Below, piece by piece: positions 819-26,999 of a DNA stretch of 32,000 nucleotides. The notes beneath the pieces are model-generated. The model searched no databases. It was not told the DNA's origin and worked only from the letters and a program-made list of their open reading frames with translations. The translations under genes and the position numbers were made by a program. Numbering within the stretch: the first letter of the stretch is position 1; every line of letters starts with the position of its first letter. Origin of the DNA: Seinonella peptonophila (GTDB lineage: Bacteria; Bacillota; Bacilli; Thermoactinomycetales; Thermoactinomycetaceae); the NCBI RefSeq assembly GCF_900129355.1, contig NZ_FQVL01000001.1, positions 541,753 through 573,752 of the forward strand, in the 5' to 3' direction.

Positions 819-2711
819 TCATGCCCTTTGTTTTCGTTTTACCGTAATCCCTCTAATCTGTTGAATTATTCCATCTGATGTGAGCCCAACTTCTTTTAAC
901 TGCTCTTGAATGGAACCATGTTCAACATAATAATCCGGTACGCCCATTCGACTTACAAATGCTTGTACTCCTTGTTCCTCATAAAATTCCAGAACAGCAC
1001 TTCCAAAACCACCTGCTAATGAAGCCTCTTCAACTGTTAGAATGGGCAATTTTTCTTCAGCTAGTCCTAATAATAATTCTTTATCGAGCGGTTTAGCAAA
1101 TCTAGCATTAATTACACGTATATTTAAACCCTCTTGGGCTAAAAAGTCAGCTGCTTCAAGTGCTGGAGAAACCATTGTTCCAAAAGCTAATATAGCAGCA
1201 TCATTTCCTGAGCGGAGAATCTCAGATTTCCCAATCGGAATCTTATTCCATTCTTGATCCATCGCAATGCCAGTTCCTGATCCTTTCGAATAACGGATCG
1301 CAATCGGACCATCATCATACTGAGATGCAGTATAAAGCATTTGACGAAGCTCATTTTCATCTTTAGGCATCATAATGGTTAGATTAGGCTGATTTCGTAA
1401 GAAACTAATATCATAGATACCTTGATGAGTTTCCCCATCTTCACCTACAAAACCTGCACGGTCAATAGCAAAGATAACATTTAGGTTTTGGCGGCACACA
1501 TCATGAATCACTTGATCATAACCGCGTTGTAAAAATGTTGAATAAATTGCTAAAACCGGTTTCAACCCTTGCGTTGCAATCCCAGCTGCAAAAGTAGTAG
1601 CATGCTGTTCCGCGATTCCTACATCAAAACAGCGTTCTGGAAAATGCTTAGCAAAATCTTCTAATTTGGAACCTGTTAACATAGCTGGAGTGATAGCTAC
1701 AATCCTTTGGTCCTGCTGAGCTAATTCGATCATCGTTTTACCAAAAATGGATGGATACTGTGGTGCAGAACTTGCTTTTTTCTGAAATGCGCCAGATTCA
1801 ATCTTATATGTCCCCACACCATGATAATTGACAGAATCGTTTTCAGCAGGTTCATAACCTTGCCCCTTTTTCGTCACAACATGAACCAAAACAGGGCCTT
1901 CTGTATCTCCTGCTTGTCGCAATATTTCCATTAGTTCTTCCAGCTCATGTCCATCAACTGGACCTAGATATGTAAGTCCCAACTCTTCAAATAAGACACC
2001 ATCAACCACCAAGTATTTCAAGCTATCTTTTACTCTTTCTAAAGTCTTTTTGAAAGGCTGCCCAGCTACTGGGATTTTTGCAAGCAACGCTTCCATCTCA
2101 TCTTTAATCTTATTATAATGACGATGAGTTCTTAATCTTCCTAAGTAATTATGCAAAGCACCCACATTTGGACTGATGGACATTTCATTATCATTTAAGA
2201 TAACAATTAAATCTTTCTTTTCGACACCAATATGGTTAAGCGCTTCCAGTGCCATCCCACCAGTTAAAGCTCCATCACCAATTACTGCGATCACTTTATG
2301 ATCCAATTGCTGCAAATCACGAGCAACGGCCATACCCATCGCCCCTGAGAGAGAGGTACTACTATGTCCTGTCTCCCAAACATCATGCTCACTTTCGCTC
2401 ATTTTGGGGAATCCACAAAGACCATGATATTGGCGCAATGTTGGAAACTGTTCTCGTCTCCCCGTTAGAAGTTTATGTACATAGGCTTGATGTCCGACAT
2501 CCCATAAAATCTTATCTTTCGGACTTTCAAATAGATAGTGCAGAGCAAGCGTAAGCTCCACTACACCAAGATTCGAGGCAAGGTGCCCCCCCGTTTCAGA
2601 TAAACTTTCAATCAAAAAATTGCGAATCTCTTTTGCCAATTTGGGTAAATCTTCAATTGATAATTTTTTTAATTCATCAGGAGAATGAATCTGCTCAAGA
2701 AGCAACAACAA
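819..2711 (-). CDS. dxs: 1-deoxy-D-xylulose-5-phosphate synthase
   Basis: 630-aa ORF with [18 protein letters not shown] near the N-terminus, the TPP-binding [15 protein letters not shown]...NDN block, and transketolase-like middle and C-terminal domains. Three consecutive TTG codons (2711/2708/2705) follow an AGAGAGG SD, so the start is uncertain by up to 6 nt. Confidence 0.95.
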
Positions 2712-2798
2712 CCGCCTCTCTTTCTTTTCATTGCATATAAAAGGAATATATTTGTATGCAATTGATCGCTTTTTTCAAAAGTTAGCTAAAGTAAACTC

Positions 2799-2807
2799 AT
2801 TATAACA
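2799..2807 (-). promoter_or_regulatory. Candidate extended -10 element (TGTTATAAT) for dxs
   Basis: The reverse complement of 2799-2807 is TGTTATAAT, about 90 nt upstream of the dxs start. There is no good -35, but the TGn extension could compensate. Confidence 0.35.
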
Positions 2808-2862
2808 CATGCTTAAAAAAATTCTATATTTCAATGTGTAAAACTATTAAATCAGATGATGA

Positions 2863-3753
2863 TTATCGTTTACGAGTTAATAAATAATCAGCAATATCGA
2901 GTAACCTTTGTGGGTTAAGTTCAGTTGTTTTTAACAGTTCCTCCTTGGCGGTATAGGTCAAACGTGCTAATAATTGTTGTGACTCTTCTAATCCTAAAAG
3001 TGAAGGATAAGTCGACTTTAAGTTTTCTTGATCACTTCCAACTGGTTTACCGATTAATTCTGGATCACCTATTATATCTAAGATATCGTCCTGGATTTGA
3101 AATGCAAGCCCTAAACGATAGGCAAATTGTGTCAATGAAGTGAGTGCTTCTTCTGATGCACCACCAATTCGAGCTCCTGTGCGAACCGAAAATGCAATTA
3201 AATCACCTGTTTTACGACGATGAATCGCTTCTAGCTCTTCGACAGTAATCTGTTTATCCTCACTGAGTAAATCATCCATCTGTCCACCAATCATTCCAAA
3301 GGCACCAGCATGCTTAGCTGTCTCTTCAATAATGGCTAATGAATCATCAAAAGATAGCTTAGCAGCTCGAACACCCTTGGACATTAAAGTGAAGGCTTCT
3401 GTTAAAAGCGCATCACCCGCTAACACAGCCGTTGCTTCATCAAATTTTTTATGGTTTGTTAATTTCCCTCGTCGATAATCATCATCATCCATACATGGAA
3501 GATCATCATGAATCAGTGAGTAGGTATGGATCATCTCAATAGCACATGCCAAGGGATAAGCTAACTCTTCCGGTTTATCACAAGCTTCTACAGTTGCTAA
3601 TACAAGAATAGGACGAAGACGCTTACCGCCTGCCATTAACGAATATTTCATCGATTGGTATAGCCGATCAGGCACTTCACGATAATGATTTAAATAATCT
3701 TCTAGTTTCGTTTCAATTATCTTGCCTTTCTCATGGATGTACGTCTCAATCAT
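2863..3753 (-). CDS. ispA: Farnesyl diphosphate synthase (polyprenyl synthetase)
   Basis: Both aspartate-rich motifs are present: LIHDDLPCMDDDDYRRGK and FQIQDDILD. It overlaps xseB by 8 nt, and the xseA-xseB-ispA order matches B. subtilis. Confidence 0.93.
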   Translation of the reverse strand: MIETYIHEKGKIIETKLEDYLNHYREVPDRLYQSMKYSLMAGGKRLRPILVLATVEACDKPEELAYPLACAIEMIHTYSLIHDDLPCMDDDDYRRGKLTNHKKFDEATAVLAGDALLTEAFTLMSKGVRAAKLSFDDSLAIIEETAKHAGAFGMIGGQMDDLLSEDKQITVEELEAIHRRKTGDLIAFSVRTGARIGGASEEALTSLTQFAYRLGLAFQIQDDILDIIGDPELIGKPVGSDQENLKSTYPSLLGLEESQQLLARLTYTAKEELLKTTELNPQRLLDIADYLLTRKR

Positions 3754-3988
3754 TTGAGTCCTCCTCAGGTTGAAATGGTTTTTTTACAAATTGGTTATTC
3801 TCCTCTATTAGCATTTCAATTTTTTGCTCTGCCCAATCCAATTTGTAACCACAATGTTGTGCCAATTTCATCCCTTCGTTAAATAAACGAATCGACTCCT
3901 CCAATGAAATATCGCCCTTCTCCAGTTCTAATACTACTTCTTCTAGTCGTTCCATTGCGGATTCAAACGATAGTTCCTGCCTCTCCAT
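3746..3988 (-). CDS. xseB: Exodeoxyribonuclease VII small subunit
   Basis: 80-aa helical protein (FESAMERLEEVVLELEKGDISLEESIRLFNEGMKLAQHC), typical of XseB, immediately after xseA. Confidence 0.92.
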   Translation of the reverse strand: MERQELSFESAMERLEEVVLELEKGDISLEESIRLFNEGMKLAQHCGYKLDWAEQKIEMLIEENNQFVKKPFQPEEDSND

Positions 3989-3995
3989 TTCATTG

Positions 3996-5351
3996 TCACT
4001 CCTCTGTAGACCATACTTGACATTTTACTGCCCCATCACTTAATCGAACACGCAAGAGATCACCCGATTGTACATTTTTAACTGAGGTGACAAGCGATTG
4101 GTCATGATAGCGATAAGCGAGAGAATAGCCTCTCTGCATTACTTTTAATGGACTAAGAGCTTCTAATTGAACGATTTGTTTCATCAATTGCTCACGATAC
4201 CTCTCTAACTGGTGATTCATTGACAATTGCAGACGATTCTTCAATCGTTCCAACCGTTCTTGATTGGTTATTAGCTTACCCTTTGGACTCAAAAGACGAA
4301 GTTTCGACATGAAATGTTCAAGACGTTGCTTCTTAATTTGCACCTGTGAATCCAAGCGATCTCGAATCATGGAGCCCCACTGATCCACTTGCTGAACATA
4401 CTGTTGGATCTTTACTTTTGGTCCACTATATTGTAATCGTTCTTGCCAATTGGTTAAAGTTTGTAATCTTTGATCGAGTACGCGCCTTTGTGCTTGAATC
4501 AAACGATGCTGAAGTAATCTTAACTGTTCTCTTAATTCAATCTGATCTGGTACGATCATCGCTGCTGCTGCAGTTGGTGTTGCAGCTCGATGATCAGCTA
4601 CATAGTCACTAATCGTCGTATCTGTTTCATGACCTACTGCAGAGATAACTGGCAAAGTTGTGCGAAAAAGACTATCCGCTACTTGACGTTCATTAAAGGC
4701 CCAAAGTTCCTCTAATGAGCCTCCCCCTCTCCCTACAATCAGTACATCTACATCCCCTTGTTGTGTTAAGATTTCTATACCCTCTGCAATTTCATTAGCT
4801 GCATTTGTCCCTTGAACAGCGACTGGAAAAAGCAAGATCTCTGTTAATGGAAAGCGTTGCCTCATTGTTATGATAATATCTCGAATAACAGCTCCACTTG
4901 CCGAAGTTACAACACCTACTCGGCGTGGGAAACGTGGCAACGGCTTTGCTGGAGCTGAAAAATAGCCTTCCTGCTCTAATTGTTCCTTTAAGCGAACAAA
5001 ACGAGTGTATAAATCACCAATACCACTCATTTGCATTTCTTGAACATATAGTTGTACTTGACCTTCACGCTCATACATGGAAAGTCTAGCAAGTGCAAAT
5101 ACCGAATCACCATTTTGCGGACGAAAACGCAATCTTCGATTTTGACTTGAAAACATAGCAGCTTTAACACGTGTCTGCTCATCTTTTAATGTAAAATACA
5201 TATGTCCACTGCGTTCATGCAGGGTAAAATTGGTAATCTCGCCCTTTACCCAGAGTGTTTGTAATTGAGGGTCCTCATCGATCTTGGAACGAAGATGTGC
5301 AACGAGGTCAGAGATTGTCCATATTTTGGTTTGCTTTTTCCTACGCCTCAT
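3996..5351 (-). CDS. xseA: Exodeoxyribonuclease VII large subunit
   Basis: 451 aa with an N-terminal OB fold (VKGEITNFTLHERSGHMYFTLKDE), a catalytic core (GRGGGSLEELWAFNE, AVGHETD) and a long C-terminal coiled coil. Confidence 0.93.
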   Translation of the reverse strand: MRRRKKQTKIWTISDLVAHLRSKIDEDPQLQTLWVKGEITNFTLHERSGHMYFTLKDEQTRVKAAMFSSQNRRLRFRPQNGDSVFALARLSMYEREGQVQLYVQEMQMSGIGDLYTRFVRLKEQLEQEGYFSAPAKPLPRFPRRVGVVTSASGAVIRDIIITMRQRFPLTEILLFPVAVQGTNAANEIAEGIEILTQQGDVDVLIVGRGGGSLEELWAFNERQVADSLFRTTLPVISAVGHETDTTISDYVADHRAATPTAAAAMIVPDQIELREQLRLLQHRLIQAQRRVLDQRLQTLTNWQERLQYSGPKVKIQQYVQQVDQWGSMIRDRLDSQVQIKKQRLEHFMSKLRLLSPKGKLITNQERLERLKNRLQLSMNHQLERYREQLMKQIVQLEALSPLKVMQRGYSLAYRYHDQSLVTSVKNVQSGDLLRVRLSDGAVKCQVWSTEE

Positions 5352-5352
5352 A

Positions 5353-5769
5353 TTAGTCTGTCACCTGACCTTCTTGGTTCTCTCGAACCCATTTCCCTAA
5401 ACATCCATTAATAAAACGACTCGCTTCATCTCCACTATATGACTTAGCAATTTCAACAGCTTCATTAATAACCACTTTAATTGGGGTCTCCTGTTCATAG
5501 AGCAACTCATAGAAGGCAATTCGCAGTATTGCCCGATCAATAGATGCAATCCTGTCAATGCTCCACCCAGACTTTAGACATTTCCCTATTACTTGATCTA
5601 TTTCATTTAAATGTTGTTGGATTCCATTAACTATTTGTTGATAGAAGAGAAAAGTCTTTCGATCCAATTTTGTTCTTTGTCTATGGATTATTTGGCTTTG
5701 TTCATCAGGTTGAAACTCAAGCTGATAGAGTGTAGTTAGTACGCTCTCTCTAGCCAATCTTCGATTCAT
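5353..5769 (-). CDS. nusB: Transcription antitermination factor NusB
   Basis: MNRRLARESVLTTLYQLEF... and ...AILRIAFYELLY are NusB-like. The track's TTG at 5784 lies inside the SD GGAGGGAG, so ATG 5769 is the likely start. The stop is 1 nt from the xseA ATG. Confidence 0.9.
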   Translation of the reverse strand: MNRRLARESVLTTLYQLEFQPDEQSQIIHRQRTKLDRKTFLFYQQIVNGIQQHLNEIDQVIGKCLKSGWSIDRIASIDRAILRIAFYELLYEQETPIKVVINEAVEIAKSYSGDEASRFINGCLGKWVRENQEGQVTD

Positions 5770-5782
5770 AATATCTCCCTCC

Positions 5783-5814
5783 AATAAAAGAACCCAGCCT
5801 TATGCTCTGGCTGG
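5783..5814 (-). terminator. Candidate intrinsic terminator after the Asp23/AmaP/DUF2273 cluster
   Basis: The minus-strand RNA reads CCAGCC-agagcataa-GGCTGG followed by GUUCUUUUAUU. Confidence 0.45.
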
Positions 5815-5830
5815 ATTCTAACAATACACC

Positions 5831-6061
5831 TTATTTTCGCATAAACTTATCCAGAAGTATATTGTCTATCATCTGCTTTACATCTTCTTTTCGATCGAAT
5901 TGAACACCGATTAAATAACTAAGCCCCAAAATAATGGAAAAAAAGAGCATCTTCCAAAAACCAAACCACAGATAAATAAAACCGAGTAAGAGGCCCAATA
6001 AAATACCAAAAGTCTGACCTTTATGCTGCTCAACAAATAACCATATTCTCTTTATATCCAT
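5831..6061 (-). CDS. Small integral membrane protein (DUF2273-like)
   Basis: Two hydrophobic helices (FGILLGLLLGFIYLWFGFWKMLFFSIILGLSYLIG). It follows the Asp23 and AmaP-like genes, as in the S. aureus asp23 locus. ATG 6061 has a GAGG SD 9 nt upstream. The track's TTG 6076 overlaps the upstream stop. Confidence 0.7.
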   Translation of the reverse strand: MDIKRIWLFVEQHKGQTFGILLGLLLGFIYLWFGFWKMLFFSIILGLSYLIGVQFDRKEDVKQMIDNILLDKFMRK

Positions 6062-7103: not shown

Positions 7104-8456
7104 CTAACTCCCTTCATACAAATCTACTTCTTCTAAAAATTGATTGTGAAAATCACCTTCTCGAAATCGTGGATGTTTCAACAGACGTTGATGGAATGGG
7201 ATGGTTGTATAGACACCATGAATCACATATTCTGCAAGTGCTCGCTCCATTCGCTCAATCGCCTCTTGACGGGTATTACCCCATACAATTAATTTTGCGA
7301 TCATCGAATCATAGTGCGGAGTAATTTGGTATCCTTGATAACATGCGCTATCAACTCGAACACCGATCCCTCCAGGTGTTAAATAGCCTTCGATCGTTCC
7401 TGGTGAAGGTCTAAAATTCTTTTCTGGATTTTCTGCATTGATACGGCATTCAATCGCCCATCCATCAAACTCAATCTCTGCTTGTGTAAAAGTCAGCGGT
7501 TCCCCAGTGGCAACCCGAATCTGTTCTTTTACCAAATCGATTCCTGTGATCTCCTCAGTTACAGGATGTTCAACTTGAATACGGGTATTCATTTCCATAA
7601 AATAAAAATTCCCATCACGATCTAAAAGAAATTCAATCGTTCCAGCTCCTGAGTAGTCAACAGACTTAGCAGCTTTCACAGCAGCTTGTCCCATTGCTTC
7701 ACGTAACGATGAATTTAATGCAGGTGATGGTGCTTCTTCCACCAACTTCTGGTATCTGCGCTGAATAGAACAATCCCTTTCCCCTAGATGAACAACGTTT
7801 CCATGATTATCGGCCAATACTTGGATTTCAATATGCCGTGGTTCTACTAAGAATTTTTCCAAATAGACTCCTGCATTTCCAAAGTTAGCCTCTGCCTCCT
7901 GTTGTGCCAAGCGGATTGCTTTGGTTAGCTCTTGCTCTGAATGAACAATTCGCATCCCTTTTCCTCCACCACCGGCAGTCGCTTTTACAATAACAGGATA
8001 CCCAATTTCCGCTGCAATTTGCTTTGCTTGATCCATATCTTGGATGATACCTTCAGTCCCTGGTACAACTGGTACGCCTGCTTGCTTCATTGTCTCTCTC
8101 GCGGTCGTTTTATCGCCCATCTGAGCGATCGCGTTCGGTGGTGGGCCAATAAATGTAATACCGCAAACAGCACAAAGCTCAGCAAAATCTACATTTTCAG
8201 CCAAAAATCCATACCCTGGATGAATCGCATCGACTCCAAGCAGTGTCGCCGTACTCATTAAATTCGTCATATTGAGATAGCTATCCTTGGCCATAGCAGG
8301 TCCAATACAAAAAGCCTCATCAGCTAAGGTTACATGAAGTGCTTCACGATCAGCTTCTGAATAGACGGCAACGGTTTGAATCCCAAGTTCACGACAAGCC
8401 CGTATGACGCGAACGGCGATTTCTCCCCGATTGGCGATTAGGACTTTTTTAAACAT
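7104..8456 (-). CDS. accC: Acetyl-CoA carboxylase, biotin carboxylase subunit
   Basis: [26 protein letters not shown], the ATP-grasp glycine loop [14 protein letters not shown], and [14 protein letters not shown]. Confidence 0.96.
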
Positions 8457-10908: not shown

Positions 10909-12096
10909 CTACCGCATCATCACTGCTATGTTTCCAGCACTTACCATGATCGTAATTGCCAAAAAGAACATCAAACCAACGGCGGCTAAAGCCGCAAAGA
11001 CATAAACAAGTGTCCGCCCTATTATTCCAAGACTTTCGATAATGGGGCTATTTCCTAATGGCTGAAGAACAGCGGCAGAAAAATGATAAATCAACGCAAG
11101 TGACAGAATCTTCAGAGCTGGGAAGGCGCAAATCATCAAAAGAATGATAACACCAGCTAAACCTAGCGTATTTTTCACTAACAGCGATGCACCAAGTACA
11201 GTATCTGCTGCATCAGAAATGGTTCGACCGATAACTGGAATAAAGTTTCCTGTTACATATTTAGCGGTACGAATCGCAATCCCATCGGTAACAGCAGCAG
11301 TCGCACCTTGAATCGAAAGGACACCTAAAAAAATCGTTAATGAGCCTCCCAGTAAGGTAATACTGAACTTATTCATCAAGCGTGCCAATTGATCTACTCT
11401 ATATTTATCAGAAATGGTGCTTACAATGCTTAAAATCGTAGAGAAAAAGAAAAATGGTAAAATGACTAAGTAGATCAATAGACTGACAATATGAATCATG
11501 AAGATGATGAAAGGATGAAATAATGCGACTGATGCCAAGTTGCCCATTGAAGCTAATAGTGTTAGTAATAGTGGCACAGAAGCAACCATAAAATCGACCA
11601 TTTGTCCGATTGCTGCCTTCGCTGCGGTGACTGCACTCGAAAAACTTTGGATGGCTAAAATTAATATCACCATAAATACTACAGCATAAGCCACCCGACT
11701 TACTTGGTTTTGTTCAAATGCGGTCTGTAATGTCTGTAAAATCATGCTTAAAACTGTTAGGACAATAATCATCCCTAAAAGCTTGCCATTGTACAAGACT
11801 TCATGTAAAAAATACCGCAGCAAACCCTTTCCAAACTCCGCTAATGAAAATTCTTTACTGTTCATCGATTGTAAGAAGGTAAATATATCCTGGGGTAGTC
11901 CTGCCGAGAAAAACTGTTGGTATTCTTGATGAAAGCGATCCCAAAAATGTTTCATTTCCTGAGTTGGTAAATGATCAAACTGGGAACGGATAAGCGGATC
12001 AATCATTGATTTTCCATCAACTGCTTCGACTGATGCTGGAAATATCAAACTGATGATAAAGAGCAAACCTATTATTAGATTCTTCAAGCTGCTCAT
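10909..12096 (-). CDS. spoIIIAE: Stage III sporulation protein AE
   Basis: 395 aa with a signal peptide (ASVEA) and a polytopic membrane body, in the expected operon position between AD and AF. Confidence 0.9.
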   Translation of the reverse strand: MSSLKNLIIGLLFIISLIFPASVEAVDGKSMIDPLIRSQFDHLPTQEMKHFWDRFHQEYQQFFSAGLPQDIFTFLQSMNSKEFSLAEFGKGLLRYFLHEVLYNGKLLGMIIVLTVLSMILQTLQTAFEQNQVSRVAYAVVFMVILILAIQSFSSAVTAAKAAIGQMVDFMVASVPLLLTLLASMGNLASVALFHPFIIFMIHIVSLLIYLVILPFFFFSTILSIVSTISDKYRVDQLARLMNKFSITLLGGSLTIFLGVLSIQGATAAVTDGIAIRTAKYVTGNFIPVIGRTISDAADTVLGASLLVKNTLGLAGVIILLMICAFPALKILSLALIYHFSAAVLQPLGNSPIIESLGIIGRTLVYVFAALAAVGLMFFLAITIMVSAGNIAVMMR

Positions 12097-12102
12097 CCTT
12101 TG

Positions 12103-12489
12103 TTACGGCAGAATATTAATAATGGTTTCGATGATTGTAATAATAATCGGGATCGCCATGACCATAATTAAAATCTTTCCAGCTAGTTCAATCTTTGCTG
12201 CAATTGTTCCTTGACCTGCATCTCTGGTAACTTGCGCCCCAAACTCAGCAATATAAGCAATACCAATAATCTTCAGGATGGTCTCTAGGAAAAATTGATT
12301 TACCTTTGCTTGATTCGCTAAGTGTGCTAGGACTTTCAGTATTTCAGTTATTTTACCAATCACTGTGAGAAAGATAACAATTCCGACAAAAGTGGCTAGT
12401 AAGAAAGCAAACATCGGTTTTTGCTCTTTGACTAAGAGGATCAGGATGGTGGCCACCACACCCAAACCAACCACCTGAATCATCTCCAA
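12103..12489 (-). CDS. spoIIIAD: Stage III sporulation protein AD
   Basis: VKEQKPMFAFLL...ETILKIIGIAYIAEFGAQVTRDAGQGTIAAKIELAGKILI is near-identical in pattern to B. subtilis SpoIIIAD. Confidence 0.93.
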   Translation of the reverse strand: MEMIQVVGLGVVATILILLVKEQKPMFAFLLATFVGIVIFLTVIGKITEILKVLAHLANQAKVNQFFLETILKIIGIAYIAEFGAQVTRDAGQGTIAAKIELAGKILIMVMAIPIIITIIETIINILP

Positions 12490-12501
12490 GTGATACTCCC
12501 C

Positions 12502-12708
12502 CTAAGAATGAAACAGAAAAACATTCTTAATTGTCTGGAATAAATCGCGAATGAGCATTGCAACCATGAAAAGTACAATGATAAAACCGATTAATGTGAC
12601 CCAATGGGCCCAATCTTCCTTACCCATTTGTTTTAAAATTGTGTGAATCATTGCGACAATGATCCCAATCCCAGCAATTTGAAATACTGCGTCTACATTG
12701 TAAGGCAT
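12502..12708 (-). CDS. spoIIIAC: Stage III sporulation protein AC
   Basis: 68 aa; VFQIAGIGIIVAMIHTILKQMGKEDWAHWVTLIGFIIVLFMVA matches the SpoIIIAC pattern. Confidence 0.92.
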   Translation of the reverse strand: MPYNVDAVFQIAGIGIIVAMIHTILKQMGKEDWAHWVTLIGFIIVLFMVAMLIRDLFQTIKNVFLFHS

Positions 12709-12720
12709 GGGCTCTCCTCC

Positions 12721-13239
12721 TCAATAAAGCAATATCACAACTAATACGCCGCCTAGAACGCCCATTGTTCGAAACATCTTTTCATATTGTTCTTGCTCTA
12801 ATCGAGCCTTCTCTTCTACAACTTGTAACTGCTCTTTTGCACGGTCTATATGTTGAATTTGATCCAATCGATCTGATCGACCTAATACAGAGCATAAATC
12901 AAGAAAAATCTCTTTCTCAGTCCCTTTCAAAGATGTCTGACCCCATACTTGACGAATCGCTTTATGAAAACAATGATAAGTTGTGTCGCCTTCGTTTTTT
13001 TGAAGCTCTTCATAACTAAATCGAAAGATATCCGCAATCTTGTCGATCTCCCGCACGGAAATTAGTTTACAAATTTCAAATAGCGGACGATTTCCATACT
13101 GAATCTCTGATCGTAATAGTGAGAATGCGGTTAGCAATTGGCGTATTTGCTTTGGTCTTTGTCGCACCTGCATGGCCAGGTGAAATCCAAGCCAAGTGCT
13201 AGTAAGGACTGTAATGAAAGAACCGACTAGTTTCAGCAT
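12721..13239 (-). CDS. spoIIIAB: Stage III sporulation protein AB
   Basis: MLKLVGSFITVLTSTWLGF...RPKQIRQL...LRSEIQYG parallels B. subtilis SpoIIIAB. It overlaps spoIIIAA by 7 nt. Confidence 0.9.
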   Translation of the reverse strand: MLKLVGSFITVLTSTWLGFHLAMQVRQRPKQIRQLLTAFSLLRSEIQYGNRPLFEICKLISVREIDKIADIFRFSYEELQKNEGDTTYHCFHKAIRQVWGQTSLKGTEKEIFLDLCSVLGRSDRLDQIQHIDRAKEQLQVVEEKARLEQEQYEKMFRTMGVLGGVLVVILLY

Positions 13240-14234
13240 GATTGACTCACCATCGTTTGAACGTATTCAATCTTTTGTAGCTGATTGTCATAAATGGTCG
13301 AGATGGTTCCAGGTCCTTTGGAACGATCCAAAAAGATATAGTAAGAGAATATCCTCTCTGCTATTAAAGAGCGTAATATAGGTCGTTTTGTTACATCAGT
13401 AATTCTTGAGCCATGGAGTGTTGCAATGAGACGAACGCCTGTGTATACAGCCTCTTGAATTGCCCGTCCATCTTCTTCACGACCCAATTCATCGACAATT
13501 AATAGATCAGGTGACATGGAACGAATCATCATCATCATTCCCTCAGCTTTTGGGCAAGCATCTAACACATCAGTTCTTAATCCTACATCAAATTGAGGAA
13601 CGCCATGAAGACATCCTGCAATCTCCGAACGTTCATCAATAATGGCTACTTTATGATGGTTGCCCACTATTCTTGCTAAATCGCGAATACAAGTTGTTTT
13701 CCCGCATTGAGGCGGAGCTACTATCATAATATTCTGCAATCCATCTTTATTATAGATGTAAGGAATGAAATGCTGCCCAGCTCCCTTTACTTCACGAGCG
13801 ACTCGAATGTTAAAATGCGTAATATCTCGTAAATGGGTTACCTTGCCATCTTGCAAAATGGCTTTCCCAGTAATCCCTACTCGATGACCTCCTGAAATGG
13901 TGATATATCCCTTCTGCAATTCTTCTTCAAGAGTATAGAGAGAATGTTGGCTTACTAAATTTAGAAATCGCTGACATATTTCCGGTGTCGCAATCATGGC
14001 ATCGATAGGTGATTGGGAGAGTATTCGTTGATCTTGCTTGATATAAAAGACACCATCTGTGAAGATCAGTTCAATCGGTCGAAGCTGACGGAGCCGCACT
14101 TCTTCTAATTGTTGCTGTTTTCCTTTTTCGAGGGATAAAATCACATGTCGGACAACTTCTGGAAAAATCGCAACTAACTGTTGATTGATGATTACACCCC
14201 CTGTCCACCTTTTACCTCCAATCTTATGGAGCAT
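13233..14234 (-). CDS. spoIIIAA: Stage III sporulation protein AA (secretion-ATPase-like)
   Basis: Walker A motif APPQCGKTT and Walker B-like motif LLIVDELG. It is the first gene of the spoIIIA operon, with an AAAGGAA SD before ATG 14234. Confidence 0.9.
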   Translation of the reverse strand: MLHKIGGKRWTGGVIINQQLVAIFPEVVRHVILSLEKGKQQQLEEVRLRQLRPIELIFTDGVFYIKQDQRILSQSPIDAMIATPEICQRFLNLVSQHSLYTLEEELQKGYITISGGHRVGITGKAILQDGKVTHLRDITHFNIRVAREVKGAGQHFIPYIYNKDGLQNIMIVAPPQCGKTTCIRDLARIVGNHHKVAIIDERSEIAGCLHGVPQFDVGLRTDVLDACPKAEGMMMMIRSMSPDLLIVDELGREEDGRAIQEAVYTGVRLIATLHGSRITDVTKRPILRSLIAERIFSYYIFLDRSKGPGTISTIYDNQLQKIEYVQTMVSQSC

Positions 14235-14283
14235 GTGATTCCTTTATTCCATTAATTGTGATAATTATTCCCATTTTGTGCAT

Positions 14284-14313
14284 TTGCTTCAATTCTCAAT
14301 TCAGTAGTATAAT
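14284..14313 (+). promoter_or_regulatory. Candidate sigmaA-type promoter reading into the GC-rich cassette
   Basis: TTGCTT (14284-14289), an 18-nt spacer, then TATAAT (14308-14313). It lies in AT-rich host-like DNA, divergent from spoIIIAA. The predicted transcription start is near 14320. Confidence 0.4.
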
Positions 14314-14325
14314 AAATTCAAACCA

Positions 14326-14475
14326 ATGTCCATTTCTGCCCGTACACAACAGCGTCATTGGACGATGGTAACCAATGTTCGTCTACCGGGTAGAGCCAAG
14401 CATACACGCTTGATGCTACCAGAATTGGAGGTCTTTGACCGAATCTTAGGGCATTTTAACGATCAATTCATTTAG
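14326..14475 (+). CDS. Candidate 49-codon sORF in the leader (hypothetical; below the ORF-track size cut-off)
   Basis: My own translation is MSISARTQQRHWTMVTNVRLPGRAKHTRLMLPELEVFDRILGHFNDQFI, with a TAG stop at 14473-14475. There is no SD, and the ATG is only ~5 nt from the predicted transcription start (near-leaderless). Coding status is unproven. Confidence 0.2.
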   Translation: MSISARTQQRHWTMVTNVRLPGRAKHTRLMLPELEVFDRILGHFNDQFI

Positions 14476-14501
14476 TCAATCAGTTTCAACGATGGGAAAA
14501 C

Positions 14502-15017
14502 ATGTCATCCTCTTACTACGACTTCTCGGAGAATCCGGGATCCCAACAACAGGGTCGTCTGATGCCCTCGCCCATCCGTGAGTGGGCGGGTCGCATCTGG
14601 AAGAGCCTTCAACCGCTCGCCAACAGGCAGATGACGCTGGAGGAGTTCACTCTGGTCACCCGTCAACTCTACCCGTTTCCTTGCGGGCACGAGCTGACGG
14701 AGGCAAAAAAGCAGAGCATCTCCGGTGAACTCAAGAAGGAGCCGCTGCGGGAGTTCTACCAGGGACAGGAGTGGATCGAGTTCGACCCCAACTGGAAGCA
14801 GGTCTCCCCGAGCCCGCTCACCTATGAAGTGGGTGAGCTGCGATTCGGCTGGAAGTGCTGCCAGGAGGTGAATCTGAAGGTCGTCATCCACCTCTCCCAG
14901 AAGAAGCTGACGATGAAGGTCACCTCCGAGGTCGACGGGGAAGAGCCGTACCTCCCCCAGATCTACGAGGTCACCAAGGAGGAGAAGGGAAACATCTCCT
15001 TCGATCTGACGAACTGA
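14502..15017 (+). CDS. Orphan 171-aa hypothetical protein with foreign, G/C-ending codon usage
   Basis: The long ORF has codon third positions that are almost all G or C (CTG, GAG, AAG, ATC, GTC, ACC, TTC, TAC), unlike every neighbouring gene. A 128-aa antisense shadow ORF is typical of GC-rich coding sequence. No signal peptide, TM segment or motif that I recognise. The RBS is weak (GGGAAAAC before the ATG). Confidence 0.7.
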   Translation: MSSSYYDFSENPGSQQQGRLMPSPIREWAGRIWKSLQPLANRQMTLEEFTLVTRQLYPFPCGHELTEAKKQSISGELKKEPLREFYQGQEWIEFDPNWKQVSPSPLTYEVGELRFGWKCCQEVNLKVVIHLSQKKLTMKVTSEVDGEEPYLPQIYEVTKEEKGNISFDLTN

Positions 15018-15037
15018 TCAACTGATCGCCGCCCATC

Positions 15038-15075
15038 CGACCGCCCCCCGGAGCAGCTGCTCCGGGGGGCGGTCG
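15038..15075. terminator. 38-nt perfect GC-rich palindrome between convergent genes (likely bidirectional terminator hairpin)
   Basis: CGACCGCCCCCCGGAGCAG|CTGCTCCGGGGGGCGGTCG is exactly self-complementary (verified base by base). It lies 20 nt after the GC-rich ORF's stop and 3 nt from the stop of the minus-strand zinc-ribbon gene. Only a weak T-tract (TCTTTAT) follows on the plus strand. Confidence 0.6.
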
Positions 15076-15078
15076 TCT

Positions 15079-15444
15079 TTATGATTCGCTATCTTTTTTG
15101 TCCTCCTCTGGAAAAAGCTCATGATGACAATTGGGACAGAGGAGCGCAAGATCATCATCCTCTAAGTCATCCTCATCAACCAATACCTCTTCTCCACAAT
15201 TTGGACATGTAATTGAATATTGATCATCATAAATCTCTAATTCAAGTTCGTTTAAATCTTCATCGATTGCCTCTGTATACTCTTCTAGTTCAGTTTGTCG
15301 CAATTGTAAGTGTTCCTGTTCCTTGACAAGTTCCTCCTGTAAATCAAGCAAACGTTTTAATATGAGGTATTCATGGCTTTCCTTATTCTTACATCCTGCT
15401 AACATCCCTTGAAGATAGGCAACCTCTCGCTGTAAATGTTGCAA
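15079..15444 (-). CDS. Coiled-coil plus C-terminal zinc-ribbon protein (resembles the family annotated 'CD1247 N-terminal domain-containing protein')
   Basis: N-terminal VAYLQGMLAG motif, an acidic coiled coil, then CPNCGEEV...CPNCHHEL (CxxC...CxxC). TTG start with an AAAGGAG SD 9 nt upstream. Confidence 0.7.
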   Translation of the reverse strand: MQHLQREVAYLQGMLAGCKNKESHEYLILKRLLDLQEELVKEQEHLQLRQTELEEYTEAIDEDLNELELEIYDDQYSITCPNCGEEVLVDEDDLEDDDLALLCPNCHHELFPEEDKKDSES

Positions 15445-15621
15445 ATGAGACCACTCCTTTGCACTTCATCGATATTAGGAATAGTGTCACCGCTTATTCC
15501 AGAAACAGTCGAAACAATTATTGGCAAATTGATTTTAAGAGAATTTGATGGTCGTTATTTTATTTGCATTGGATGAAAAAATGGGGAAATGGGGCAAGCT
15601 ATGGCAAAAGGAGGAAGCTTT

Positions 15622-16890
15622 ATGGAGCAAAGCGTTAAACAATCAACTGGATCACCAAAACCGGTCACTCTGTGGATTTTAAGTATGATTCCTATCTTAA
15701 TGGTATTGGGCAATTCTATGATTATCCCAGTACTTCCTACTATTCGTTCGATTTATCATGTTAGTTCTTTTCAAGTAAGCCTATTAATCACGCTTTTTTC
15801 AATTCCCGCTGCATTCATTATTCCCATTGCTGGAATTCTTTCAGATCGAATTGGCAGAAAAAAAGTGATCATTGTTAGTCTGATCATTTACGGTATAGGA
15901 GGGTTATTCTCGGCTGGTGTTGCGATCTGGAGTAAAGATTCCTTTATGCTTTTGCTGCTTTCAAGAATTATACAAGGGATTGGAGCAGCAGGAACAGCAC
16001 CCGTTGCAATGGTTTTAGCAAGTGATCTCTACAAAGAGGAAGAAAGAGGGAAAGCGCTTGGAATCATAGAAGCTGCCAATGCAGCAGGTAAAGTGCTCAG
16101 CCCCATTGTTGGTGCTCTCTTAGCCACATTGATCTGGTATGCCATGTTCTTTGCTTTTCCCATTTTAACGATCCCTTTGGTTTTTCTCCTGATCAAATAT
16201 GTAACAGATGCACCGCTAAAAAATGTTCCAAAGCTAGCCCAATATCGGAAATCGATTCAGAAAATTTTTTATCGACAGGGACGCTGGCTTTACGTTGTCT
16301 TCTTTGTCGGACTCGTCACGATGTTTACCATGTTTGGTGTACTCTTCTACTTTTCTGAATACCTAGAACAAAAATTTAAGTTAGCTGGAATGATGAAGGG
16401 ATTTATTTTAGCCATTCCATTACTTGGATTAGGATTTACAGCTTATTGGACAGGGTCACATATAAAAGAACGAACTCGAAAAATGAAACATATAATTTGG
16501 ATTGGGCTTCTTCTATTGACAATCTGTACGACTCTACTAATCTGGATTCATCAGTTTTATTTATTACTTGCTATTTTATTAGGTATTGGGATTAGTAGTG
16601 GACTTATTATGCCTTGTCTGAATACGTTGATCACTTCTTCTATTGGGATGAAAGAACGCGGTTTAATCACTTCTTTTTATAGTAGTGTCCGTTTTCTTGG
16701 TGTTGCTCTAGGACCTCCTATCTTTGGTGCATTGACAAAACATCCTTACTTGCTTTTTCTAGGTACAGCTTCTGCACAAGTGATCGCAATCCTGCTCGTT
16801 CTATTTCGTTTACGGCAACCTCAAAGATTACGGGGAAAAGGAGAACGATCTCGTCTTTATCTCCATAAAAATCATTTTCAGTCAACTTAA
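15622..16890 (+). CDS. MFS transporter (12-TM drug/solute exporter type)
   Basis: Polytopic hydrophobic profile, with MFS motif [13 protein letters not shown] between TM2 and TM3. ATG 15622 sits 7 nt after a perfect AAGGAGG, so the in-frame track start at 15589 is probably an over-extension. Confidence 0.85.
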
Positions 16891-16955
16891 TATTACTAAA
16901 CTTGTCCGCGCTCGCATACTCCTATATGGAACGAGGAGAATTGGAGGAAATAGAG

Positions 16956-17411
16956 ATGCGCGGAGAGCTTCTATTAGTCATTTTAATTATAATAGGTCTC
17001 GTGGGTCGATCACCCTTGATCGCTACTGCTGCGAGTCTCTTACTCATTCTTAAACTCGTTCATCTGGAACATTATTTTCCATCTGTCGAACGACGTGGTC
17101 TAGAGTTAGGCCTACTTTTTTTAACATTAGCTGTCCTCGTTCCCTTCGCTACAGGGCGTATTACATGGAATGAAATCTATACTGTCTTTACTTCAATACC
17201 TGGAATTCTGGCCCTCTTAGGTGGTGCAATCGCTACATATATGAACGGCAAAGGGCTTGACCTATTAAAAATCGATCCACAGTTAACCGTAGGAATGGTT
17301 CTGGGATCGATCTTTGGCATCCTTTTTTTGCGCGGGATTCCAGTTGGGCCATTGATGGCGGCTGGATTAACCGCACTATTTCTAAAACTAGCCTATTACC
17401 TTTTCGAATAA
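16956..17411 (+). CDS. UPF0756/DUF441 family membrane protein
   Basis: 151 aa with four hydrophobic helices. [30 protein letters not shown] is typical of the YtwI-like DUF441 family. ATG 16956 is preceded by GGAGG 8 nt upstream. Confidence 0.75.
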
Positions 17412-17423
17412 AACAGAAACGAT

Positions 17424-18566
17424 TTATTGTTCAGGATTTGCTTGTTGACGACTGCGAGTCATCTGTTGCCAAACAGTTCCACTCGCTGCCTCACCTTTTT
17501 CAATCCGTTCCAATGCGATTTGAGTCTGCATCCTGACCTCAAATTCGGGGTCTTCTAAAGCCTTTTGTAATGCTGGAATCGCTCGTTCATCCCCCACTTC
17601 AAATAAGAATCGTGCTGCTCGCCAACGAACCAATTTATTACGATCAGACAAGGCATCAGACATAGCAGGAACAGCTTTTGGCGAACCTAAGTCTGAAAGG
17701 CAATCTCCTGCCGTTCTTCTCACCATTGGTGATGAATCGGTTAATGCTTGACAAAGCAATGGAAGAGCAATCTCATCCTCAAAATAGCCTAAAATCACAA
17801 CAGCTTGGCGACGAATTGACATCTTCTGATCCTTTAATGCTCGTTCTAAGACGGGCATTGATGCAGGCTCTGGTTCTAATTGATCAAGAGCGCGATATCG
17901 AGTCTCCCAATCAGGCGCATCCATCGCTGCTTTGATTTGATCCAGAGTCATTTTAGGTTCTGGTTCTACATTCTGCTGTGCTGATCGTATAATTAATTGT
18001 TGTAGCCGTGTATCATTATATGTAGCTTCCAATTCAGCGACTACTTGCTCACCAACTTGTTCTAAATCGCCATAACGAGGTCGTTGTACTACCCATTTTC
18101 GTTCAAAAATATGATTCGATACATTCTTTTGCACTTCCAGCACAGCTTCTGTAAATCGATTTGATAATCCAAATCGGCGTTCCTCATCACTTCGGCGTAA
18201 TTTCACTTGTAAAGGAATTCCCTTTAACTGTTGTACCTCAACCGTGATTTCAAGATATGATGGATCTATTTCAGTTTCCTTTGCATCGGTTTCAGTCGAA
18301 CGGTGTTCTACATCACCTAATGCGTTTCTTGCTGCACTCAGTATCTGTTGCCAATCTGCCTTTGGATGACGTTCCAATGATATAAAATCAAGCACTTGAA
18401 ACACACCTGTAACTCCATCAATCTCTAATAAACGCCGTAAGTAATCGGGAGCACCATCTTTCTCCTGCTTCTGGAACTGAAGATTTTTCCCTTCAGGTAG
18501 GGATTGATCAAGGTTTAGCTTCATTGCATTTGGACTTGGCGTTGGTTCAATGGATAGAATCTTCAA
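17424..18566 (-). CDS. Nfu_N-domain / HEAT-repeat protein (conserved 'virulence factor C' family, YpgR-like)
   Basis: The N-terminus MKILSIEPTPSPNAMKLNLD resembles the scaffold Nfu/NifU N-terminal domain. The C-terminal half has repeated HEAT/PBS-lyase-like units (MSIRRQAVVILG, SPMVRRTAGDCLSDLG, NKLVRWRAARFL, EFEVRMQTQIAL). Confidence 0.7.
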   Translation of the reverse strand: MKILSIEPTPSPNAMKLNLDQSLPEGKNLQFQKQEKDGAPDYLRRLLEIDGVTGVFQVLDFISLERHPKADWQQILSAARNALGDVEHRSTETDAKETEIDPSYLEITVEVQQLKGIPLQVKLRRSDEERRFGLSNRFTEAVLEVQKNVSNHIFERKWVVQRPRYGDLEQVGEQVVAELEATYNDTRLQQLIIRSAQQNVEPEPKMTLDQIKAAMDAPDWETRYRALDQLEPEPASMPVLERALKDQKMSIRRQAVVILGYFEDEIALPLLCQALTDSSPMVRRTAGDCLSDLGSPKAVPAMSDALSDRNKLVRWRAARFLFEVGDERAIPALQKALEDPEFEVRMQTQIALERIEKGEAASGTVWQQMTRSRQQANPEQ

Positions 18567-25292: not shown

Positions 25293-26999
25293 TCAATATA
25301 ATATGGTTTTCCCTTCGACATTGAGCGTTACTCTTTGAATAATGGGAGCGATCTGTCTAGAATAAGTTAAGTTTTTCTGTTCATTTCCATCATAAAATTG
25401 AATCATAGAACGTGTATGAGTTGTATAAATATGAACCTTTATCAATTTACTTCCTTGCTGAATCCAATCTGTTTTTTTCACGGCCATTTTCTTCAATTGC
25501 TCCTGTAAATAAAAAAGCTCAAGTCTTGATTTTGCATTCCAGTAAGCTTTCCATTGTTGATGATCAGTAGTGAGTAGATTAATAGAAAACGGATATTGCA
25601 TGGTTACCGGACGAATCATAAACGACTTTTTCAAATGAAGCTGTTCCACTGTTGAACCTGGAAACAAAACGGTTTTATTATTCATGATTTTCCCTTGACC
25701 GAAAACCAACCGCCAAGGAGTCGGATATAAATAAGAGATTGAACGATTGACTCGTTTTTTAACCAGTTCAGTCCGCGGCTGTTTTACCACAACCATTCCT
25801 TTACCTTCTATCCGCACAATAAAAGAAGATGCTATGGGTAGAGTGCCAATTCCTATCCATTTTAGCTTTGATCCAGATTCTTGAAGCTGAACCGCCAAAG
25901 GTTTCCCTCGCTCATATTCAATGATATAATGATATATTTTTCTTGGTTTCACGCGAAACTCCGATGAGATCAACATCGGCAACTGCCGTTTTCCTGACCG
26001 TTGATATAGAATAATCCGCCCATTCGAAGAGACTGTCAAGCCATATTGCTTTTCTTTATCTTTTTTTGATTGTAATAAAAAATAAAAAGTAGAACCTTTA
26101 CCCATCGAAAAACTACCTGTAATACGAGAAAATCGATCCACACCCACAGGCAATTGGTATTCCCTGTCTCTGTTTCGAAGATCGAACCAAGCAGGATTCG
26201 TGTAAAAATGATCGTTTGCTTTATCTTGCTGTGGCAGGCAAGTATGATAGGTACTTGTACTTTTCACTATGAAAATGAACATCATGAAAACTCCACACAG
26301 AACCACCCATTTCCAATGAGGCTGTTTTTGTATCGTCTTTTTCCAATATTCATCTAAATAATCATTCAATATTTCCATAAATGTTTGCATGGTCATCTTA
26401 GAGGTGATGACCTGTTTAATCAATTTAGATATCGATGAAGGGATCTTATTTACTTTCAACTGAATAAATAAATCTTCTACTCCTGAATCATAAAATTGAC
26501 CAGTTAGTAAAAAAGGTAATAATTTTCTCCAACTCTCATGCTCTTCTTCAAGATGTTCCACAGAAAAAAACAGTAATAAGGGATCACCTTCCCGAACCAG
26601 TATTTTTTTTGGATCACATGCAATGTGTAGAGGAAGATTCGTTTCTTTTACATACACGATCACTTGCAAAACTTTAAGTACAAATTGCATTGCTTGATAC
26701 AGTTCCATAGGACGATTCGGATTTACTTCTAACAATAAAGGTTCCCCGGTATTTGGAGGATGCACCAAAATCAATTGATTATCTTCAAGAATCATATCAA
26801 GAATCGGAACGATATAAGGATGTTGTAACTGCTGCATTAGCTGGTTTAAACTCATCTCTTTTATCGTTAAATCATATAAAGGAATTTTTTGAAGGCAAAG
26901 AGAGGTACCATCTAATGACCTTGCTTGAATTAACTGCCCTGTTATAGAGTCAATTACATCTTCAACAAAAAATCTTTGATCATACTGAGAATGTAACAA
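25293..26999 (-). CDS. Membrane-anchored pseudokinase-like protein, paralog B (hypothetical)
   Basis: The N-terminal ~210 aa show the order of protein-kinase subdomains with degenerate catalytic residues (LCLQKI; HPYIVPILDM..LILVH; LHIACDPKKILV in place of HRDxKPxNIL; no DFG; SWRKLLPFLLTG). One TM helix (WKWVVLCGVFMMFIFIV) precedes a ~300-aa beta-rich C-terminal region. TTG start with an AGGGTG SD. Confidence 0.6.
   Translation of the reverse strand: MLHSQYDQRFFVEDVIDSITGQLIQARSLDGTSLCLQKIPLYDLTIKEMSLNQLMQQLQHPYIVPILDMILEDNQLILVHPPNTGEPLLLEVNPNRPMELYQAMQFVLKVLQVIVYVKETNLPLHIACDPKKILVREGDPLLLFFSVEHLEEEHESWRKLLPFLLTGQFYDSGVEDLFIQLKVNKIPSSISKLIKQVITSKMTMQTFMEILNDYLDEYWKKTIQKQPHWKWVVLCGVFMMFIFIVKSTSTYHTCLPQQDKANDHFYTNPAWFDLRNRDREYQLPVGVDRFSRITGSFSMGKGSTFYFLLQSKKDKEKQYGLTVSSNGRIILYQRSGKRQLPMLISSEFRVKPRKIYHYIIEYERGKPLAVQLQESGSKLKWIGIGTLPIASSFIVRIEGKGMVVVKQPRTELVKKRVNRSISYLYPTPWRLVFGQGKIMNNKTVLFPGSTVEQLHLKKSFMIRPVTMQYPFSINLLTTDHQQWKAYWNAKSRLELFYLQEQLKKMAVKKTDWIQQGSKLIKVHIYTTHTRSMIQFYDGNEQKNLTYSRQIAPIIQRVTLNVEGKTILY

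Follow-up and report, generated by a model that had tools for sequence, protein, structure and literature searches.

Compositionally atypical, horizontally acquired ORFan islets are classically interpreted within the amelioration framework of Lawrence and Ochman; in bacteria, most ORFans and recent acquisitions exceed the host genome in AT content. Another described kind is the phage moron, for which the criteria of Hendrix and colleagues have been summarised (PMC2920897). Here, we analysed a 32-kb stretch (hereafter the window) of a 917-kb contig of Seinonella peptonophila (Thermoactinomycetaceae), a soil bacterium that carries a homologue of diphtheria toxin, a protein for which the other characterised examples come from Corynebacterium and Streptomyces (PMC9018708). 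Between spoIIIAA, the first gene of the spoIIIA operon, and a gene for a zinc-ribbon protein, the window contains an orphan open reading frame (ORF; SAMN05444392_101550, WP_073151522.1) that is far more GC-rich than its surroundings and is followed by a putative terminator of its own. On the basis of the current results, this insert is probably a recent, un-ameliorated, moron-like single-gene acquisition by illegitimate recombination. A first-pass annotation, made by reading the sequence, had left a choice between two origins, an orphan gene gained horizontally very recently or an artefact of assembly or engineering; the former is now favoured by an empty site in relatives, a codon fit ∼115 log units better for high-GC usage than for that of the host, the lack of relatives in the collections searched and the lack of mobility machinery in the window.

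The resemblance to morons extends to several features. An extra ORF lies between two conserved genes that are otherwise adjacent, it is accompanied by its own predicted factor-independent terminator, its nucleotide composition is deviant (GC of 0.606 inside the GC-rich block versus 0.390 outside; GC at third codon positions (GC3) of 0.825 versus 0.25–0.41) and the site appears to be a recurrent point of entry, with different inserts in relatives. However, the insert is bordered not by phage genes but by core chromosomal ones (the spoIIIA operon, the zinc-ribbon gene, an MFS transporter and efp), and no PHROGs match was found. In addition, although the Seinonella insert has a strong predicted terminator, no sigma-70-type promoter was detected on the upstream plus strand, which shows a lone TATAAT (14308–14313), and its gene is known from one genome (self-matches only), whereas morons typically recur in several phages. 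Because its flanks are not phage genes and the gene was not found elsewhere, the insert is moron-like but not a moron. It belongs to the well-known class of compositionally atypical ORFan islets, with which it shares a position-specific composition far from that of the host, absence in relatives, lack of homologues and lack of amelioration. It differs from that class in that the gene is far more GC-rich than its host and in that the insert is unusually compact (one gene plus terminator), without any mobility gene. The process is an ordinary one and no new type of system is involved.

The composition and boundaries of the insert were observed directly. GC content was 39.4% for the whole window. 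In 300-nt sliding windows it rose from ∼0.39 to 0.58–0.59 over positions ∼14500–15080 and then dropped again, and in 200-nt windows the peak reached 0.62, that is, 6.1 s.d. above the remaining window, where the maximum was 0.51. The by-eye estimate of the first-pass annotation (high-50s against high-30s %GC) was close to the computed values (58% and 39%). The ORF also fell outside the host distribution in GC3, for which all other real ORFs of at least 90 aa in the window gave 0.25–0.41. Its periodicity, with high GC3 and low GC at second codon positions (GC2), was present in one frame only, from ∼14514 to the stop codon without any frameshift, with values of 0.95–1.00 in the final third; therefore, the sequence evolved as coding DNA, and ORF 14502–15017 is an intact coding sequence whose evolution took place under GC-rich mutation pressure. 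The same annotation had read the frame-specific GC3 bias as a sign of real coding sequence, had listed an antisense ORF (14505–14891) and had placed a cysteine at residue 61. All of this was upheld: the antisense ORF is present (128 aa), a shadow that a GC3-rich frame is expected to cast, and Cys61 is correct on direct count, the ORF having three Cys codons. By part of the ORF, GC3 was 0.60 in codons 1–20 and 0.85 in codons 21–171.

A two-state likelihood segmentation delimited the GC-rich block (Table 1). Its right edge coincides with the end of a terminator hairpin, and the edges could be resolved to a few bases on the right and to a few hundred on the left. The certain foreign part is ∼560 nt (14519–15077), and the extra DNA relative to the empty site up to ∼760 nt (14320–15078). 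The start codon of WP_073151522.1 is uncertain: the NCBI start, ATG 14562 (M21), gives 151 aa and the alternative ATG 14502 gives 171 aa, the GC-rich block starting 17 nt inside the 171-aa frame and 43 nt upstream of the M21 start.

The empty site was likewise observed in related genomes. A SpoIIIAA contig scan provided 80 related loci, to which a Logan contig (L081) was added later to give 81; all statements on loci refer to those listed, among which are neither the source genome nor possibly closer sisters. The closest relative among the matches listed was L081, with 64% identity in SpoIIIAA, and a protein-database search with SpoIIIAA returned none closer than 64%. This locus has the same order as the window (MFS transporter, zinc-ribbon gene, spoIIIAA), and its spacer between the zinc-ribbon gene and spoIIIAA is empty, 171 nt in length, and contains a terminator of AT style, a sigma-E-like promoter and, as ribosome-binding site, GGAGGTG. 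Other Thermoactinomycetaceae are also empty, with spacers of ∼60–120 nt in Thermoactinomyces, Hazenella, Polycladospora and Melghirimyces (loci L001, L002, L007 and L012). The zinc-ribbon orthologue was located 5′ of spoIIIAA on the same strand in 22 loci, mostly immediately upstream. No relative of the ORF was encoded in any of the first 80 loci or in L081 (0/81), and tblastx of 14235–15100 against all of them gave chance-level matches only (best E 0.034).

On the spoIIIAA side, the upstream regions of eight genomes share a block (GTCATATT..CATA..TGGACAGGAGGTG..ATG), whose version in the window (14249–14195) comprises a −35 element GAATAAA (14249–14243), a 14-nt spacer, a −10 element CATAAGAT (14228–14221) and a ribosome-binding block TGGACAGGGGGTG (14207–14195). 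By the published Bacillus consensus, this would be a candidate sigma-E promoter of spoIIIAA. The block marks the left limit of ancestral DNA, and its retention suggests that the DNA from roughly 14251–14319 up to 15078 is non-ancestral. Different inserts were found at the same place in other genera. In Thermoflavimicrobium dichotomicum (L006, 4846–5657), the spacer is occupied by a BacA/UppP gene split in two ORFs (frameshift or pseudogene), and in three further loci (L019, L022 and L024, ∼1300–5850; Croceifilum/Baia/Thermoactinomyces sp. DSM 45891) by a 4.8-kb block of GT2, HTH-TPR regulator and DoxX genes; the position of the zinc-ribbon gene in L023 is the same as in these three. The inserts of L006, L019, L022 and L024 are host-like in GC. 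Such a variety of inserts suggests that, in Thermoactinomycetaceae, this spacer tolerates insertions and has received them repeatedly.

The right edge of the foreign block is predicted to be a strong, plus-strand intrinsic terminator of the ORF. It consists of a perfect 38-nt palindrome (CGACCGCCCCCCGGAGCAG followed by CTGCTCCGGGGGGCGGTCG, 15038–15075), which begins 20 nt past the stop codon and is identical to its own reverse complement, and then TCTTTATGAT. The 19-nt arms (inverted repeat I1, 100% complementary) would form, as RNA, a 17-bp stem with a 4-nt loop, 15 of the 17 pairs being G–C. The motif is unique in the window and is much stronger and more GC-rich than the host terminator candidates (20 kb compared). 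It ends 3 nt short of the stop codon (15079–15081) of the zinc-ribbon gene, which is convergent with the ORF and does not have the AT-style terminator found in L081. Transcription on the plus strand would stop at the hairpin. The original terminator of the zinc-ribbon gene would have been displaced by the insertion, leaving the palindrome at the 3′ end of the convergent transcript without a downstream U-tract on that strand, and because this tract is missing, zinc-ribbon transcripts may read through into the ORF in antisense. The arrangement bears on the co-option of foreign terminators between convergent genes. A weak terminator-like site on the minus strand inside the ORF (14712–14724; a 5-bp stem, then CTTTTTTGCC) is the only candidate stop for such read-through ahead of the spoIIIAA promoter. 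In addition, the stop codon of the ORF is overlapped by an 8-nt tandem duplication of AACTGATC, for which a rough estimate gives one chance occurrence in about 100 such regions; deleting either copy keeps the stop codon the same, and the duplication could stem from slippage or mark the site of a recombination.

In the collections searched, the product of the ORF appeared to be a true orphan. No match in Pfam, NCBIfam, PHROGs or PADLOC was found at E up to 1 for the ORF, for its antisense ORF or for a 49-aa ORF upstream (14326–14475), the last of which had a self-match from Logan only. A search of PDB sequences (E up to 10) gave no match to the ORF, and a word-indexed search of 5.8 billion protein clusters returned the self-match only. 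An exhaustive phmmer search of 1.84 billion representatives yielded the self-match and three spurious matches to giant or artefactual repeat proteins, in which no single stretch was significant and scores added up many repeat copies. One of these (P0004; 24 residues, 43.6 bits) was rejected as homology, its score being summed over seven identical artefactual repeats whose unit has 10 of 24 residues in common with ORF residues 51–74. The two giant repeat proteins (P0002 and P0003) were also rejected; they share a 23-residue W-x-FD...VG-L motif (residues 91–113) that scores ∼25 bits per copy. With regard to He_PIG or cadherin-like Ig repeats, this motif alone was seen and no full-domain match. 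No family match at E up to 1 indicated a polymorphic-toxin module (PT-VENN pre-toxin, orphan C-terminal toxin or immunity protein), and no partner gene was adjacent. At the DNA level, tblastn and blastn against phage and plasmid collections gave nothing but one chance-level 45-nt match (E 0.02), and pattern and tblastn scans of viral and metagenome contigs revealed no relative of the ORF.

AlphaFold2 without alignment gave a predicted local distance difference test score (pLDDT) of 47–48 for the 171-aa and 151-aa versions, and a layout of two or three N-terminal helices followed by a C-terminal meander of six or seven strands. Foldseek found no match at E 0.001 or better in PDB and BFVD; scattered START/SRPBCC-like matches with probability <0.3 were disregarded. 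The first-pass annotation, which had found no motif that it could place in the 171-aa product, was in line with these searches of families, proteins, DNA and structures, in which only self-matches, and nothing credible by structure, were obtained. In the acidic product, inspection revealed neither a predicted signal peptide nor a membrane segment, which is consistent with a small cytoplasmic alpha+beta protein. An origin of its beta-rich half from internal repeats was considered and rejected: Tandem Repeats Finder detected no array, and an autocorrelation at lag 39, which corresponds to a weak 13-residue periodicity in the strand region, was marginal (z = 2.9 over 30 lags).

We also examined which codon usage best accounts for the ORF. 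Using codon tables derived from fetched sequences of each source, the synonymous-codon log-likelihood over 151 codons was −115.7 for Mycobacterium phage L5, −115.8 for Rhodococcus pRHL1, −123.4 for Sinorhizobium pSymA, −124.3 for Paenibacillus caseinilyticus, −125.9 for Thermus pTT27, −128.5 for Streptomyces phage phiC31 and −130.0 for Deinococcus MP1; the high-GC styles tested other than the Mycobacteriales type (GC3 of 0.71 or above) ranged from −123 to −132. Uniform usage gave −162.6 and Seinonella host genes −230.8; high-GC usage beats the host by ∼115 log units, and the host lies ∼68 log units below uniform. The best fit was obtained with Mycobacteriales-like usage (GTC over GTG, frequent TCC and CTC), ∼8 log units ahead of other high-GC phyla, a margin too small to establish the donor phylum. 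The Gly (GGT/GGA) and Arg (CGT) preferences of the ORF were poorly fitted by all tables. The 17-bp, nearly all-GC stem of the terminator is also reminiscent, together with the Mycobacteriales-type codon fit, of the I-shaped or long perfect-palindrome terminators of high-GC Actinomycetota. However, the Rfam match of 14967–15075 to the Streptomyces small RNA Scr6925 (search at E up to 1) was sub-threshold (28.4 bits, the gathering score being 50; E 0.04), and the codon advantage is ∼8 log units only.

GC at first codon positions (GC1) and GC2 of the ORF were 1.1 and 1.6 s.d., respectively, under their regression on GC3 in 1,048 Bacillales genes and were not anomalous; on these values, the amino acids encoded could well come from a high-GC donor. 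The possibility of a gene of synthetic or eukaryotic origin was rejected on the same values, together with a CpG observed/expected ratio of 0.78 (not depleted) and the bacterial type of the terminator. It is well known that GC3 tracks genomic GC, and from the GC3 of 0.83–0.85 we infer a donor of roughly 60–65% genomic GC. The arrival would be recent because the codon style is un-ameliorated in a 39% GC host.

How the gene arrived may be approached from the signatures of known mobile systems. In the 32-kb window, ARAGORN detected no tRNA or tmRNA, and no integrase, transposase or other recombinase was present among the window ORFs; no direct or inverted repeats beyond chance flanked the block, which had neither terminal inverted repeats nor a target-site duplication. 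These scans bore out the first-pass annotation, in which no integrase, transposase, tRNA or flanking direct repeat had been visible. Because attC sites, repeats, tRNA and recombinase are all absent, illegitimate recombination is, by elimination, the most likely route. In such a scenario, the gene would have evolved in an organism of the high genomic GC given above, or in a mobile element carried by one, and the incoming DNA would have arrived, for example, by natural uptake or by transient carriage on a phage or plasmid. Non-site-specific recombination would then have placed it in the short stretch that separates the zinc-ribbon gene from the sigma-E-like promoter of spoIIIAA, and selection or deletion would have trimmed it to the gene and its own terminator, a unit that would disrupt neither conserved neighbour.

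Several other explanations of the locus were weighed. A dedicated mobile system (an integron cassette with ORF plus attC, a derivative of a MITE or IS element, or a tRNA-targeting island) appears extremely improbable. The insert is superficially similar to an integron cassette in its size (∼0.6–0.8 kb), its single and apparently promoterless ORF and its 3′ inverted repeat. However, neither the R″ (RYYYAAC) nor the R′ (GTTRRRY) core of attC was present on either strand of 14200–15250, and the inverted repeat is a perfect terminator palindrome with a T-tract, without (as judged by eye) the extrahelical bases that attC sites typically carry. Integrons are rare in Bacillales, and no integron integrase or cassette array was found among the ORFs of the window. 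For a MITE or IS derivative, the repeats around the block are merely short, of low identity and at chance level, and no transposase was seen; for a classical genomic island, the tRNA or tmRNA, integrase and flanking direct repeats are missing from the window. A native old gene whose GC-rich third positions were kept by selection or by a local bias in mutation or conversion is also highly improbable. Its GC1 (0.556) and GC2 (0.368) are near host gene values, and the spacer is variable in the family, where lineage-specific genes do occur. Nevertheless, the gene is absent from 81 of 81 related loci listed, including the closest relative, no other gene of the 32 kb has such a bias, host codon usage performs ∼68 log units worse than uniform, and the non-coding terminator is GC-rich as well, which codon selection cannot account for.

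The artefact proposed as an alternative in the first-pass annotation was weakened by the assemblies. In the Logan assembly SRR5187778, a 107-kb contig with the 171-aa ORF is identical (100%) to window positions 11502–15067, and a 24-kb contig with the zinc-ribbon gene is identical (100%) to 15046–18444. The left AT-to-GC transition (∼14500–14520) lies inside the unbranched 107-kb contig and the right GC-to-AT transition (15075–15079) inside the 24-kb contig, also unbranched. A contaminant high-GC segment spliced into the host contig, possibly at the palindrome, would fit the facts that the gene is known from one genome project with evidence at the contig level, and that the k=31 Logan assembly breaks in the palindrome, so that no Logan contig joins the ORF to the zinc-ribbon gene. 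This break is what a k=31 de Bruijn graph should produce, because a perfect 38-nt palindrome folds it onto itself; each contig continues for 11 nt after the palindrome centre, with 22 nt shared between the two, as expected there and with no sign of a mis-join. A chimera of assembly, contamination or library origin is very unlikely because both junctions lie inside unbranched contigs and the flanks are neighbours in all relatives, the join restoring the expected gene order, and because two different assemblers produced base-identical sequence.

Some points nevertheless weigh against a recent acquisition by illegitimate recombination. No donor or homologue was found, and the case for transfer is built on composition and synteny. 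The lineage is represented by one genome with a distant nearest relative (64% SpoIIIAA identity), by which the time of gain is loosely bounded, and loss in all other lineages is formally possible. The Logan assembly was probably built from the same reads as that in GenBank, being independent in method but not in data, and none of its k=31 contigs spans the palindrome. The left boundary is fuzzy, the stretch 14320–14501 being of intermediate GC; it may be the upstream region of the donor or unrelated filler DNA. This stretch folds no better than its shuffles (z = −0.41) and shows no Rfam family and no codon periodicity. With regard to expression, which would have to be presumed from sequence signals, a promoter scan detected no sigma-70-type site on the plus strand upstream of the ORF. 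The perfect TATAAT in the AT-rich spacer has as its nearest −35 candidate a poor TTGCTT at 19-nt spacing, and a second candidate was found by eye (TTGACC-17-AACGAT, 14435–14463; 8 of 12 positions matching). Shine–Dalgarno pairing was weak to moderate (−6.4 kcal/mol for ATG 14502 and −3.9 kcal/mol for ATG 14562), both values being inside the host range, toward its weak end.

The lack of a sigma-70-type promoter and the weak pairing at both starts also speak for a dead-on-arrival fragment, that is, real foreign DNA that is an unexpressed, non-functional remnant still awaiting decay, such as the 3′ part of a larger donor gene with its terminator, in which the frame and ATG are fortuitous. The same applies to the start of the block 17 nt into the frame, the lower GC3 of codons 1–20, the ease with which GC-rich DNA yields long frames (the antisense strand alone has one of 128 aa) and the low confidence of the structure prediction (pLDDT 47). 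On the other hand, with the M21 start the block begins 43 nt upstream and looks like a complete gene with its own leader, all 171 codons are intact, a canonical terminator 20 nt past the stop gives the layout of a whole gene, and single-sequence predictions generally give low pLDDT. We consider such a fragment unlikely, although it deserves to be kept in mind. More speculative is the capture of exactly one transcription unit by an unrecognised route (for example, by reverse transcription and integration of a foreign transcript, as a bacterial ‘retrogene’), an idea raised because the limits of the certain block, from a few dozen nt 5′ of the M21 start to the last base of the hairpin, are close to those of a mature mRNA. 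This, or a protein that founds a new fold family, has in our view only a slight chance of being right; if true, and whatever the mechanism of insertion, the 151–171-aa product could found a protein family and fold without sampled relatives among ∼15 billion predicted proteins.

Acquisition by illegitimate recombination would make this locus an unusually clean case of a non-ameliorated single gene in a core sporulation locus without mobility machinery, and a natural specimen for this kind of gene gain in spore-forming soil Bacillales. It would also point to DNA exchange between cultured organisms and donor lineages that are still unrepresented in databases. By itself, the case opens no new mechanism and answers no long-standing question. 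For annotation, WP_073151522.1 should be flagged as horizontally acquired, with an uncertain start codon.

Table 1. Features of the insert and its flanks in the window
Feature	Position	Strand	Evidence and remarks
spoIIIAA, first gene of the spoIIIA operon	13233..14234	-	Pfam Spore_III_AA, E 1.4e-90; TIGR02858, E 1.5e-104; GC3 0.327; left flank, host DNA
Ancestral spoIIIAA control region	14195..14249	-	Upstream alignment of the window with seven relatives (A1; eight genomes)
AT-rich host-style spacer	14251..14319	.	GC 0.23–0.30 in 30-nt windows; no alignment with relatives
Intermediate-GC stretch (∼0.45) 5′ of the ORF	14320..14501	+	GC windows; missing at the empty site
GC-rich orphan ORF, 171 aa from ATG 14502	14502..15017	+	GC 0.581; GC1 0.556; GC2 0.368; GC3 0.825
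Foreign high-GC block, maximum-likelihood extent	14519..15077	+	Two-state likelihood segmentation; GC 0.606 inside versus 0.390 outside
8-nt tandem duplication, AACTGATC twice	15012..15027	+	Tandem Repeats Finder, 100% match, score 32; overlaps the TGA stop of the ORF
Perfect 38-nt GC-rich palindrome plus TCTTTATGAT, predicted intrinsic terminator	15038..15085	+	Terminator scan; inverted-repeat scan
Zinc-ribbon gene, CD1247 N-terminal domain	15079..15444	-	NF045650 CD1247_Nterm, E 2.1e-13; right flank, host DNA

The 32-kb window is a conserved housekeeping region. On the spoIIIAA side it contains dxs, a polyprenyl synthetase gene, xseA, nusB, Asp23-family genes, accC (labelled as called in the syntenic locus L081) and spoIIIAA-AH, and on the other side the zinc-ribbon gene, the MFS transporter, DUF441, an Nfu/HEAT protein, efp and an M24 peptidase. 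The zinc-ribbon protein has a CD1247-type N-terminal coiled-coil domain and a C-terminal CxxC...CxxC ribbon, the latter matching Zn_ribbon_4 with an E of 6e-6, which is under Pfam's cut-off. The synteny of its gene with spoIIIAA extends over Thermoactinomycetaceae, Tepidibacillus and some further Bacilli and suggests an uncharacterised sporulation-linked role. The sole other window ORF with raised GC3 (0.62) was a 106-aa frame antisense to accC (7941–8261, plus strand), which is a shadow ORF and no second foreign gene. Elsewhere in the window, two adjacent minus-strand ORFs of ∼570 aa each (25293–26999 and 27032–28747) form a divergent tandem pair of paralogues, with 25% identity in an alignment of 511 columns (E 1e-23). 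Neither has a match in Pfam or NCBIfam, and both are slightly under the window average in GC (0.355–0.368).

A further observation concerns the start of spoIIIAA, for which 14187–14249 of the window was compared with 1950–2020 of L081. The annotated ATG (14234) falls between the −35 and −10 elements of the candidate promoter and, because of this position, is probably upstream of the transcription start. Past the ribosome-binding block, the spoIIIAA frame has only ATC codons (14192 and 14189), where relatives have ATG and L081 has ATT at 2014. SpoIIIAA may therefore start at a non-canonical ATY codon in the Seinonella/L081 lineage, and its 333-aa annotation is probably ∼15 residues too long.

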